From contig CAUQDN010000001.1 of assembly GCA_963517285.1 (NCBI GenBank), forward strand, positions 108,205-172,204: a stretch of DNA of 64,000 nt, given 5' to 3'. Positions 50,765 to 53,531 of this stretch are shown one piece after another. This stretch comes from an uncultured Candidatus Saccharibacteria bacterium. GTDB taxonomy: Bacteria; Patescibacteriota; Saccharimonadia; Saccharimonadales; Saccharimonadaceae. Numbering within the stretch: position 1 is the first letter of the stretch; each line of letters begins with the position of its first letter. The translations under genes were made by a program, and so were the position numbers. The notes under the pieces were generated by a model. It was not told where the DNA came from. It saw nothing but the letters and a program-made list of their open reading frames with translations, and did not search any database.

Positions 50765-50812
50765 TCGTCGGATTTGTCAGTTACTTTCACCTCTGTTATA
50801 CTAGAAAGTAAT

Positions 50813-52117
50813 ATGAAGACGACTGTAAAAAACCTATCCGAGACCAAAGTTGAAGTAACTATTACGCTTGATGCAAAAGAACTTTCTGACGCTGAGCAAG
50901 TTGCTGTAACGAAGCTAAGTAAAACTGTTAAAGTTCCTGGCTTTCGTGAAGGCAAAGTACCTGCAAGCGTCGCTGCAAAGCACGTAAACCCACAAGCACT
51001 TCAAGAACAACTTCTTGACGATGCTATTAGTAAGGCAATTGCCGAAGCTTTCTTATCTGAAAAAATTCAAGCACTCGACCGTCCAGCTGTTGATGTAAAG
51101 AAATATGTTCCTAGTGAACTCCTTGAGTTCGTCGCTGAGGTTGAAGTGCTACCTCCAGTAACCCTTGGTGACTACAAGAAGCTTACGAAGAAAGCTGAAA
51201 AAGTATCAGTAACCGATGAAGAAGTAACCGACGTGATTGAGCGCATGCGCCAAGGCTTCGCTGAAAAGAAAGATGTTGAACGTGCCGCAAAAGATGGTGA
51301 TGAAACGGTAATCGACTTTGTTGGCAAGAAAGACGATGTTCCATTCGATGGCGGTACTGGTACTGACTACACCTTAAAACTTGGTTCAAACCAATTTATT
51401 CCTGGATTTGAAGAGGGTATTGTTGGTCATAAAGCAGGTGAGACATTTGATCTAACCCTCACATTCCCTGACGATTACCACGCCAAAGACCTTGCAGGCC
51501 AAGAAGTTGTCTTCACAACTACTCTAAAGAAGGTAATTGAGCTGGTCCTTCCTGAAGCGGGCGACGAACTCGCTAAAAAAGCCGGCACTTTTGAAACGCT
51601 TGATGAACTTAAAGAAGACATCAAACGTGAAATTACGACTCAAAAAGAAAACGAAGCAGCTAATAAACTTAAAGACGATCTTATTGAAGAGCTGATTGAA
51701 AAGAGCACCGTTCCAGCACCTGAGGTGCTCGTAGCTGACCAAATGCGTTCAATTGAGCAAGACTTCGCTCAAAACCTTATGTACCGTGGTCTCGATCTCC
51801 ACACGTACCTTGAAGCAAACAACTTTAAAGACGAAGATGACTGGCGCGAAAAGGAAGTCAAGCCTGCTGCAACTCGCCGTACTCAAGCCGGTCTTGTTCT
51901 TAATGAACTTACCAAAGCTGAAAACATTACCGCAACCGACGCTGAAATTGACGAACACGTAGAAGTTCACAAGCGCCAGTATGTGAACAACCCAGAAGTA
52001 CTGAAGCAATTTGAAACACCAGAAGTTCGCCGTGACATTGCGAACCACTACGTTACCGAAAAGGCAATCGAACGCCTTGTTGAACTTAACGGTGGTAAAG
52101 TAACTCCTCACAACTAA
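50813..52117 (+). CDS. tig: Trigger factor
   Basis: [14 protein letters not shown] domain (FIPGFEEG); start placed at ATG 50813. Confidence 0.95.
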
Positions 52118-52200: not shown

Positions 52201-52797
52201 ATGAGTAATCCTAAAAACTATTTGGTTCCGACAGTTATTGAAAAGTCGCATGACGGTGAACGTGCATTTGATATTTATTCACGTCTATTAAAAGATCGCA
52301 TTATTTTCTTAGGTGAAGAGGTGAATGAGCACACCGCTAATATTGTGATTGCGCAGTTGCTTTACCTTGCGTATGAAGACCCAAAGAAAGATATTAAGCT
52401 ATATATCAACAGCCCGGGCGGTAGTGTTTATGATGGGCTTGGCATTTACGACACTATTCAATTTATTCAACCCGACGTACAAACAATCGGCATTGGACTA
52501 CAGGCAAGTATGGGGGCATTCCTGCTCTCAAGCGGCACAAAAGGAAAGCGCTTCGCACTACCAAACAGCCGTATTATGATTCACCAGCCATCAAGCGGTA
52601 CGCAAGGTAAGATTAGTGACCAAGAAATTACGCTGCGTGAAGGCCTGTTCCTTAAGCAAAAGCTGAATGAAATTCTTGCTAAAAACACCGGACAGAAGCT
52701 GAGTAAAATTGAAAAAGACGCTGACCGCGATTTCTGGATGAGTGCTAAAGAAGCCAAAGACTATGGCTTGATCGATGAAATCATTGAAAAATCGTAA
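52201..52797 (+). CDS. clpP: ATP-dependent Clp protease proteolytic subunit
   Basis: [33 protein letters not shown]. Confidence 0.97.
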
Positions 52798-52811
52798 AAA
52801 AGTTGTATAGT
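52784..52811 (+). promoter_or_regulatory. Sigma70-type promoter for the high-GC cassette
   Basis: TTGAAA (52784-52789), 16-nt spacer, TATAGT (52806-52811); the -35 lies inside the clpP 3' end. Confidence 0.6.
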
Positions 52812-52861
52812 TTAACAAGGTCGTCTTGACCCTAGTAGCATCATTCATGCAAGGGGGAATC

Positions 52862-53188
52862 ATGCAGTACGGCGGATTTGTTTGGGCGTTTGTCATCCTC
52901 TCTGTGATGTTGTTCCTGGCCGCGAACTTCAGCTTCGCGAACAAGGACGAGGTCGATCACGGCCTCGTGCCGTCACGTCGGAACGAGTACTGGGCGCTGT
53001 TCTTCTTCCTGATGGCGCTGAGTGTGCCTCTCATGGTGATCGAGCTCTACACGGGCGTCTCCATCCTGCAGTACCTGACGTGGTGGTCCACTCTGACGTG
53101 GATCTCGGGCGTATCGCTGCTCTTCTGGATGAACCGCCTGGCTATCACCTTCGTGGTGAAGGCGAGCGACAGCTTCGTTCACGAGTAG
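52862..53188 (+). CDS. Small 3-TM membrane protein with strongly atypical high-GC3 codon usage
   Basis: AAGGGGGAATC-ATG SD; 94 of 108 codons end in G/C (hand count); three hydrophobic segments. Confidence 0.8.
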   Translation: MQYGGFVWAFVILSVMLFLAANFSFANKDEVDHGLVPSRRNEYWALFFFLMALSVPLMVIELYTGVSILQYLTWWSTLTWISGVSLLFWMNRLAITFVVKASDSFVHE

Positions 53189-53252
53189 GTGACCTTCTGC
53201 GTGTGACAGAATAAGACGGGGTGGAATTGATTTTCCGAACCGTCATCACACA

Positions 53253-53303
53253 GCTTTCATTACCTGAGCGGGTAATCTGATGAGTCCAAAAGGACGAAAA
53301 GGC
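53253..53303 (+). ncRNA. Hammerhead ribozyme, type III
   Basis: GCUUUC^ AUUACC-UGAGCG-GGUAAU CUGAUGA GUCC-AAAA-GGAC GAAA AGGC: complete core, stems I, II, III; predicted cleavage after C53258 (UUC triplet). Confidence 0.92.
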
Positions 53304-53334
53304 GAAAATAGTTGAAAAACACCTATAATATCTC

Positions 53335-53363
53335 TTGATTTATTGGGATAAAAGTCGCATAAT
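53335..53363 (+). promoter_or_regulatory. Putative rpoB promoter
   Basis: TTGATT-17 nt-CATAAT. Confidence 0.55.
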
Positions 53364-53531
53364 GGCTACTAAGAAGTAGTGTAGCCCTGGTTATCTATGC
53401 CGTTAAATTGGTGGGATATATCGTTGAAGAGGATGTGGCAGTCCCACTTCAACCCAGAGGTTAAGGGAATCTTCGGCGCCAAAGAAACCCCCAATATCAA
53501 ACCCCATAATTAACTGCGAGGTCCATTATTT

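Follow-up and report, generated by a model that had tools for sequence, protein, structure and literature searches.

A type III hammerhead ribozyme directly past the long hairpin that closes a GC-rich single-gene cassette between clpP and rpoB of a Saccharibacteria genome

According to the accessible parts of two earlier reports, hammerhead ribozymes of bacteria and prophages flank small, non-conserved open reading frames (ORFs), and polycistronic transcripts are cleaved by them in vitro (PMC3088659, PMC6155905). The subject of this study is a 530-nucleotide (nt) block of an uncultured Candidatus Saccharibacteria bacterium that lies between clpP and rpoB in a stretch of 64,000 nt (hereafter the window, G000:C1:108205-172204 of the source genome; positions without such a prefix are those of the window). 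The block carries a single small gene and ends in a long hairpin that is followed directly by a hammerhead of type III. We consider it probable, at roughly 0.6, that this is a lineage-specific accessory single-gene cassette resembling a phage moron, in which the hammerhead takes the place of the U-tract of a terminator and serves in mRNA 3'-end formation and in the insulation of rpoB.

The hammerhead can be followed base by base. Stem III is formed by 53253-57 paired with 53299-303, stem I by 53259-64 paired with 53271-76, and stem II by 53284-87 paired with 53292-95 (GUCC/GGAC, closed by the loop AAAA), so that three helices surround the junction and both the 5' and the 3' end lie in stem III as in type III ribozymes. 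The catalytic core follows the CUGANGA...GAAA pattern, with CUGAUGA at 53277-83 and GAAA at 53296-99, the A15.1-U16.1 pair at A53299-T53257 and a base other than G at H17 (C17, C53258). In the minimum free energy (MFE) fold, stems I and II of the hammerhead are present. An Rfam scan of the whole window at gathering level reported two tRNAs only and no hammerhead, and at the level of E-values the family RF00008 was matched over its full length (RF00008 positions 1-54) at 53251-53305 (31.3 bits, E 1.4e-4 over 901 nt).

Relatives of this ribozyme were gathered by identity to the window's own 23-base core, which means that a single sub-clade was sampled. In the species-level genome collection at least 126 stretches carry the exact core, and among viral contigs 37 do. 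Among the matches listed, 80 core loci had titles, and these named Saccharibacteria, Saccharimonadia or Saccharimonadales in 38 cases, other Patescibacteria in 21, unclassified organisms in 11 and other phyla in 10, with no Actinomycetota label (0/80). The clade is present in 20 of the 151 genomes drawn across the phylum and includes soil and groundwater lineages within the candidate phyla radiation (CPR). In an alignment of 150 of the 169 distinct copies, where stem II is invariant by design of the collection, 94.9% of the cells in stems I and III can pair compared to 33-44% with slid partners, and double-sided changes number 727 compared to 76-154. The covariation score reaches 0.744 as opposed to at most 0.125 for the controls, a value attained by none of 500 shuffles. 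Stem II itself covaries in those congeners that were found with a custom covariance model, R1 (GCUG/CAGC, GUCG/CGAC, GCCG/CGGC). Covariation of this strength marks the hammerhead as genuine as a class and its fold as an object of selection across the clade; self-cleavage of the window copy is a prediction. In the genus census with R1, whose training set includes the window hammerhead, 24/40 genomes had a match, and the total was 35 (0-4 per genome); these tallies include G052, a genome flagged as unpublished, and come to 34 matches in 23/39 genomes when it is excluded. The analyses of single loci draw on the other genomes.

The bases directly 3' of the cassette hairpin are those of stem III of the hammerhead. 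The hairpin has no U-tract and a terminator scan is silent at 53190-53330, so no intrinsic terminator is recognizable at the end of the cassette. The 80 nt on the 5' side of stem III fold with a z-score of -4.1, compared to -0.6 in a control stretch 250 nt further upstream. Every part that the initial annotation had named between clpP and rpoB, i.e., a promoter, a Shine-Dalgarno (SD) sequence, a 108-codon ORF with three transmembrane segments, a hairpin and a complete hammerhead, was found where it had been placed, and the architecture proposed there, that of a self-contained and putatively self-cleaving mRNA cassette, is supported, with a length of ~441 nt. The counts of G/C-ending codons on which that proposal drew, 94/108 in the ORF (48 G and 46 C) and 7/30 at the start of clpP, were reproduced exactly by our recount, and clpP as a whole has 82/198. 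The GC content at first, second and third codon positions (GC1, GC2 and GC3) of the ORF is 0.50/0.36/0.87, and the GC3 of its native neighbors is 0.41 (clpP), 0.35 (tig) and 0.44 (rpoB). Such a three-base periodicity, in the frame defined by the SD sequence and the ATG, speaks for genuine protein coding, with a composition that looks foreign. The hydropathy of the 108-amino acid (aa) protein indicates three membrane-type segments, the third of them weaker. Only the ORF is GC-rich; the 5' untranslated region (UTR), the hairpin and the hammerhead of the cassette are not. No relative of the protein was found: matches to Pfam were all sub-threshold, phmmer against 1.84 billion representatives and a word-indexed homologue search gave 0 matches each, tblastn against a phage collection had a best E of only 0.8, blastn against a plasmid collection gave no match, PHROGs and PADLOC gave 0 matches, and the best score in a protein atlas (0.88) was under the useful range.

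The order of gene, long hairpin and ribozyme recurs at other loci. The only other credible hammerhead of the genome lies 221 kb away (G000:C1:382348-382409), and its upstream block contains two GC-rich ORFs, one of 123 aa (GC3 0.90) and one of 99 aa (GC3 0.80) with two hydrophobic segments and the SD sequence GGAGGA, as well as a very stable long hairpin on the 5' side of the hammerhead (z = -6.4). This second copy adjoins a convergent DUF305-CsoR-DUF4396 operon and is located ~2.2 kb downstream of a tRNA-Glu gene. In the MFE fold of the second copy (L002:1427-1500), the long hairpin can be lengthened at its base by the 5' strand of stem III, which could leave the mRNA 3' end fully paired after cleavage or could switch the ribozyme off.

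Across 27 loci in congeners, several of which are orthologous and hence not independent, mean GC is 0.57 upstream and 0.488 downstream of the hammerhead; the contrast is positive at 22 loci, at least +0.08 at 13 and -0.08 or below at 1. The upstream ORFs there are mostly 72-181 aa long with a GC3 of 0.65-0.97 and end mostly 50-130 nt before the ribozyme. In other genomes the contrast is positive at 63/77 loci (36 at +0.08 or above and 2 at -0.08 or below; Wilcoxon p = 6e-9). The initial annotation had asked whether hammerheads sit 3' of small, unrelated, SD-led and GC3-rich ORFs, and the second copy as well as the 22/27 and 63/77 loci bear this out. When 82 distinct loci were divided into 100-nt bins, GC was 0.51-0.54 from -500 to -100 and 0.44-0.47 farther upstream as well as downstream. 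A paired comparison of ORFs from the same locus gives a GC3 of 0.60 for the upstream ORF and of 0.473 for the remaining ones (n = 42, of which 34 are positive; p = 5e-7). Viral contigs show almost no contrast (GC +0.005; GC3 0.472 versus 0.428).

The hairpin and the direction of the gene are equally recurrent. The best coding-like upstream ORF is co-directional with the ribozyme at 58/74 loci and at 19/19 if its GC3 is at least 0.7. Over 75 loci the 80 nt on the 5' side of stem III have a mean z of -2.67 with 47/75 below -2, compared to -1.12 and 12/75 in the control stretch 250 nt further up. A conserved CTGCTTGTCAT box before many ribozymes was considered as an antisense start codon, but the alignment identifies it as the 3' arm of the long hairpin. 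What follows the ribozyme is more varied: the next gene is co-directional at 45 of the 75 loci (median distance 80 nt, 21 within 70 nt), convergent at 23, and absent within 600 nt of the ribozyme at 7/75. Only 14-65 nt separate the end of the ribozyme from the start codon of a native gene (uvrD, P-type ATPase, pilin) at 11/27 loci of the genus. That gene, long hairpin and ribozyme keep their order whatever follows fits 3'-end formation of the upstream message, with the separation of cistrons as a by-product. Many loci of Parcubacteria type share a conserved GTTCTTT-like box 4-10 nt past stem III (L004, L007, L017, L062, L063, L085, L096), which may be the U-rich tail of a terminator or a promoter element. 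Tandem hammerhead arrays with a spacing of 390-1490 nt and one small ORF per unit were seen in other metagenome-assembled genomes and in one phage contig (L039/L040, L041/L042, L047, L115, L163/L164); such arrays could yield unit-length RNAs with 5'-OH and cyclic-phosphate ends.

Table 1. Features of the cassette between clpP and rpoB and of its flanks, in window coordinates.
Feature	Position	Strand	Basis
clpP, left flank, native composition	52201..52797	+	ORF list, start context; GC3 0.41; 74-81% nt identity in 24/24 congeners
Sigma-70-like promoter TTGAAA-16-TATAGT	52784..52811	+	Consensus scan, 10/12 positions; predicted start near 52818
Shine-Dalgarno sequence AAGGGGG	52851..52857	+	Direct reading; 4 nt 5' of ATG at 52862
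108-codon ORFan, three predicted hydrophobic segments, GC3 0.87	52862..53188	+	ORF list, codon counts, hydropathy
Long imperfect 3' hairpin, no U-tract after it	53199..53252	+	MFE fold
Type III hammerhead ribozyme	53253..53303	+	RF00008 31.3 bits; R1 66.9 bits (in training set); clade covariation
Predicted self-cleavage site	53258..53259	+	Standard hammerhead geometry (A15.1-U16.1 pair followed by C17)
Possible leftover of a former clpP 3' end, right junction	53304..53328	+	Resembles clpP end of G003; in-frame ClpP-like C-terminus; tentative
rpoB promoter TTGATT-17-CATAAT, right flank	53335..53363	+	Consensus scan; directly after clpP or cassette in congeners

The block has the stop codon of clpP (52797) on its left and the rpoB promoter on its right (Table 1), and the last codons of clpP supply the -35 box of the cassette promoter. 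This promoter is weak evidence when taken alone because the scan gives 6 promoter-like sites per 2 kb compared to 2.7 expected; similar promoters are found in analogous cassettes at the clpP-rpoB site of congeners and at other GC3-rich genes of the genome. The view that many native genes lack leaders held up in part in a spot check: the tig promoter TTGTCA-17-TATACT (50776-50816) ends ~10 nt before the likely ATG, so that tig may be near-leaderless, but clpP has an SD sequence (AAGAGG) and rpoB a leader of ~170 nt. The leader after the rpoB promoter is kept across congeners. A box at 53364-53395 right after this promoter is conserved in every congener read; Rfam offered nothing for it at E <= 10, and it may belong to the rpoB leader as an element of its own.

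The cassette is an insertion into this spacer. A DNA search for the 530-nt block in the genomes of 40 relatives found no match apart from short matches to the core at other loci, and the same search did find clpP and the rpoB leader. Among ten congeners in which the spacer was read, it is nearly empty in two (14 nt in G003, 74 nt in G006), has no ORF in G002 and low-GC ORFs in G020 and G004, and contains different small GC-rich ORFs in G024, G023, G001, G014 and G008. These five GC-rich cassettes each have their own TTGAC-type promoter, an SD sequence and a long hairpin that is followed by a T-run, and a hammerhead was found at the site in 0/5 of them; the window cassette stands out by a ribozyme where they have a U-tract. 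An all-versus-all comparison of the small proteins from this site in six genomes detected no similarity (best E 0.15), which rules out one diverging gene in favor of unrelated cargo. Varied and unrelated cassettes across congeners make the clpP-rpoB site a hotspot for small single-gene cassettes. As had been noted initially, no integrase or transposase is visible; no recombinase ORF of any of these kinds lies in the block, and neither the window locus nor the surroundings of the second copy contain an integrase, transposase or reverse transcriptase. A target-site duplication, also described as absent, was looked for and rejected since the alignment of the left and right junctions is weak, with 15% of shuffles scoring equally. 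The bases at 53304-53328 are tentatively taken as a remnant of a clpP end.

The ORFs before other ribozymes share no common function. A Pfam match was obtained for 12/84 of them, in unrelated families (SPFH twice, NUDIX twice, GT2, YfbU, DUF4419, DUF3605, STIV_B116-like and a few weak ones). This diverse and mostly family-less cargo matches the small non-conserved ORFs that prokaryotic hammerheads adjoin according to the accessible parts of a published survey (PMC6155905). Some of the cargo consists of small families common to several genomes together with the ribozyme, and ORFs upstream of other hammerheads, away from the clpP-rpoB site, form protein families between genomes. A reading of the cargo as defense genes was dropped, given that PADLOC matched 4/71 ORFs, all weakly, and that the 12/84 Pfam matches fall into unrelated families. 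ORFs of ~300 aa before the ribozyme in phage contigs were considered as capsid genes, but PHROGs named none as such; of 31 phage-contig ORFs, 8 had a PHROGs match, 3 of them to an anti-restriction family (PHROG 7245, annotated as anti-restriction protein, in phage contigs L151, L157 and L160). Other counter-defense-like ORFs before the ribozyme resemble STIV_B116/Csx16 (L022:1756-2166(-), L047:979-1317(+)). A small secreted Cys-rich family with a signal peptide, a Y-C...C-Y-Q-V-N-G motif and a GC3 of 0.76-0.86 precedes the hairpin and hammerhead in two Saccharibacteria genomes (L179 in G016, and L075).

High GC3 extends beyond genes with a ribozyme. The source genome (914,568 bp, 4 contigs, GC 46-47.5%) fits the 47 +/- 3% given for the G1 group of Saccharibacteria, and the accessible parts of that source make no mention of such GC-rich cassettes (McLean et al. 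2020, PMC7427843). Among its ORFs of at least 150 aa the main GC3 mode is ~0.42, and 37/827 have a GC3 of at least 0.7, some of them antisense shadows. GC3-rich genes (0.75-0.97) mostly stand singly between core genes such as der, pth, topA, rplJ-rplL and dnaX, e.g., in G000:C1:394000-405500 (L218) and G000:C1:238000-257500 (L217), and several have near-consensus promoters and long-stem terminators. There are dozens of such GC3-rich single-gene cassettes, most of them with plain terminators and without a ribozyme. The most extreme composition of the genome is that of three surface proteins of 669-752 aa with LPXTG-type C-terminal sorting signals (GC3 0.94-0.97; G000:C1:268587-276503). At the uvrD locus of five congeners (L197, L200, L201, L204, L206), where 14-24 nt separate the hammerhead from the uvrD start, identity is 91-95% in the ribozyme and 73-78% in the flanks; the ORF of 100-132 aa upstream has 31-33% protein identity where this is detectable, and its GC3 is still 0.64-0.88. 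It is a positional orthologue that evolves very fast with GC3 kept high. In the orthologous pair L198/L213 (49% aa identity), 0.59 of first and 0.63 of third codon positions are conserved, and 70/80 synonymous codon pairs end in G or C in both members. Since the bias persists across speciation, high GC3 looks maintained in a fast-evolving class of genes. Possible causes are selection on the RNA, repeated replacement from a GC-rich pool, or biased gene conversion at recombination hotspots, a process reportedly treated by Lassalle et al. in 2015. Fast-evolving, GC3-biased single-gene cassettes are prime candidates for host-interaction factors in organisms that are hard to study.

For the window cassette we propose that transcription would start near 52818 and that RNA polymerase would read through the hairpin, after which the hammerhead would fold and cut after C53258. 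The released mRNA of ~441 nt would end just past the hairpin in a 2',3'-cyclic phosphate, a combination expected to protect it from 3' exonucleases. Read-through RNA into the leader of the essential rpoB gene would become a separate molecule with a 5'-OH. With its cut placed between the hairpin and the rpoB leader, the ribozyme would make the 3' end and at the same time act as an insulator towards rpoB, and the 108-aa protein would probably be made by the bacterium itself and inserted into its own membrane. What hammerheads do in bacteria is an open question, to which this locus and its relatives add a concrete and testable rule: in epibiotic ultra-small bacteria, a small accessory gene ends in a long hairpin with a type III hammerhead directly past it, at the position that a terminator occupies in sister cassettes. 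The rule suggests that mRNA 3' ends are made by ribozymes and protected by hairpins, and that natural insulators exist.

Several alternative explanations share part of this evidence. The ribozyme could be kept for the downstream gene, i.e., rpoB here and uvrD, a P-type ATPase gene or dnaK elsewhere, trimming read-through transcripts so that the gene gains a defined and structured 5'-OH leader in the manner of the synthetic RiboJ (see below), and the upstream ORF would be incidental. The short distance to a native start codon at the 11/27 genus loci favors this, as does the uvrD locus, where the ribozyme is conserved together with the downstream gene and the upstream ORF diverges. However, rpoB starts 223 nt beyond the ribozyme and behind its own conserved promoter, congeners express rpoB without a ribozyme, and the convergent next gene at 23/75 loci and at the second copy leaves no downstream cistron for the ribozyme to serve, so that we regard this explanation as improbable. 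We are similarly skeptical of the idea that a mobile or phage-derived element (moron, retrozyme-like or RNA-mediated) ends in the ribozyme, which would mark a junction and have no present function in the cell. A GC shift that ends at the ribozyme, the sporadic spread over the genus (0-4 copies per genome, 24/40 genomes), the 37 phage-contig loci with the same core, the tandem arrays of other genomes, the tRNA-Glu gene near the second copy and the possible clpP-end remnant would all suit such an element. Against it stand the lack of an integrase, transposase or reverse transcriptase at either locus, a flanking repeat that is not significant, and a ribozyme fold under purifying selection whose position is kept across species; moreover, the two direct-repeat hammerheads of retrozymes and viroid-like RNAs are replaced here by a single ribozyme per locus, from which no unit-length or circular RNA can form.

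Recent horizontal transfer from a donor of high GC, for instance an actinobacterial host, with the ribozyme adjacent by chance or brought along, would account for a GC3 of 0.87 in a genome with its main mode at ~0.42, for the LPXTG-type surface proteins at 0.94-0.97 and for the absence of the block from all 40 relatives searched. Nevertheless, we rate it as quite unlikely: the close actinobacterial or phage homologue that the initial annotation named as the mark of a simple transfer, against its own idea, was not found (0 homologues in the searches made, the one against 1.84 billion representatives included), the GC-richness is confined to the ORF, no Actinomycetota appear among the 80 titled core loci within the matches listed, and orthologous cassettes retain their high GC3 across speciation. 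Much less credible still is that the GC-rich stretch is a noncoding structured RNA with the ORF as a by-product of high GC. The missing homologues would fit, and high-GC DNA carries long ORFs on both strands, but the strict periodicity runs in frame with the SD sequence and the ATG, the same frame encodes the hydrophobic segments, and analogous ORFs before other hammerheads form protein families between genomes. The initial annotation had gone further and suggested a self-trimmed mRNA with codons and SD sequence tuned to a high-GC host, which would be transferred to that host and translated there. The recurrent tie between ribozyme and GC3-rich ORF and the searches that gave no actinobacterial or phage homologue are in line with this idea, and the high GC3 of positional orthologues at 31-49% aa identity looks maintained rather than like the fading trace of a transfer. 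On the other side, no evidence of export was found, most GC3-rich cassettes of the genome have plain terminators and no ribozyme, the same clade occurs in phage contigs without upstream GC enrichment, in soil and groundwater CPR lineages and in genomes across the phylum (20/151) whose hosts are unknown, and the SD sequence and promoter suit the bacterium itself equally well. We know of no mechanism for the export of mRNA to a host. We therefore consider delivery to and translation in the host unsupported and highly improbable, and scarcely any more weight falls on its extension to a whole class, in which GC3-rich ORFs before hairpin-hammerheads of Saccharibacteria and other Patescibacteria would be messages aimed at hosts with host-like codons under selection, and self-cleavage would give them the form of compact RNAs, capped by structure, for passage to the host cell and translation in it.

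The interpretation as an accessory cassette whose ribozyme forms the mRNA 3' end has weak points of its own. The 31.3 bits obtained with RF00008 fall below the gathering cut-off of 48.5, due to the 4-nt loop 2, the short stems and a different loop 1 and not to the core. A tertiary contact between loops 1 and 2 is needed for fast hammerhead cleavage at low Mg2+. In the window copy loop 1 is atypical for the clade and of its bases only the near-invariant U and G are retained, and loop 2 is AAAA by design of the search. In an alternative fold, the 3' strand of stem III finds its partner at a more distant upstream site. The promoter, the cleavage and the 3' end of the cassette are themselves predictions from the DNA; a search for sequencing runs that contain the locus gave none, as the runs listed shared only tiny fractions of its words and no RNA run was among the holders. 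With rpoB behind its own promoter downstream of the cassette, a need for insulation is an assumption. Finally, this model leaves the GC3-richness of the ORFs before ribozymes unexplained and gives no account of why only 2 of dozens of GC3-rich cassettes use a ribozyme.

Our literature search on hammerheads with Saccharibacteria, Patescibacteria or the candidate phyla radiation found no relevant report. In its general kind the element is known, namely a bacterial hammerhead beside a small ORF, as far as the accessible parts of that paper tell (PMC3088659). New are the Patescibacteria-rich type III clade, the module of hairpin and ribozyme in the place of a terminator, and the strong tie to GC3-rich ORFs. 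Within the same limits, the cassette shares with the hammerheads of Perreault et al. 2011 and de la Pena et al. 2017 the canonical structure, a location between genes beside a small ORF that is not conserved, the link to phages and a proposed role in cutting long transcripts into gene-length mRNAs (PMC3088659, PMC6155905). These reports, in the parts accessible, stress type II ribozymes, neighborhoods of integrases or prophages and pairs of ribozymes (PMC3088659, PMC6155905), whereas here a single type III ribozyme lies in a core-gene spacer, always after a long hairpin, belongs to a Patescibacteria-rich clade and is tied to GC3-rich ORFs.

The members of RF00008 (Hammerhead_3; viroids, satellite RNAs and retrozymes) have the same topology and core, and the GUCC...GGAC stem II is near their consensus, but the window ribozyme is encoded once in bacterial DNA and is no repeat unit of any RNA replicon that is circular. 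With intrinsic (Rho-independent) terminators the cassette has in common a stable GC-rich hairpin just past the stop codon that would define and protect the mRNA 3' end; it differs in that no U-tract follows and the end would arise by self-cleavage after read-through instead of release by the polymerase. Phage morons are said to be autonomous units of promoter, ORF and terminator with a composition unlike their surroundings (Juhala and Hendrix, 2000). The cassette has both this architecture and the deviant composition, yet it is flanked by clpP and rpoB, outside any recognizable prophage, and the resemblance is one of function and not of membership. The mammalian Clec2-like hammerheads, by contrast, reportedly are of a discontinuous kind, whose cut takes away the poly(A) tail and reduces expression (Martick et al., 2008). 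They too sit in the 3' UTR of a protein-coding mRNA and cut past the stop codon, but the cassette mRNA would retain a protective hairpin, and stabilization would be expected in its case. Synthetic RiboJ, finally, is reported to combine a type III hammerhead and a hairpin into a unit by which a transcript is made independent of its upstream context (Lou et al., 2012); it is engineered, is placed 5' of the gene under its influence and carries its hairpin on the 3' side of the ribozyme. Here, too, the cassette shows a resemblance in function and is not a member.

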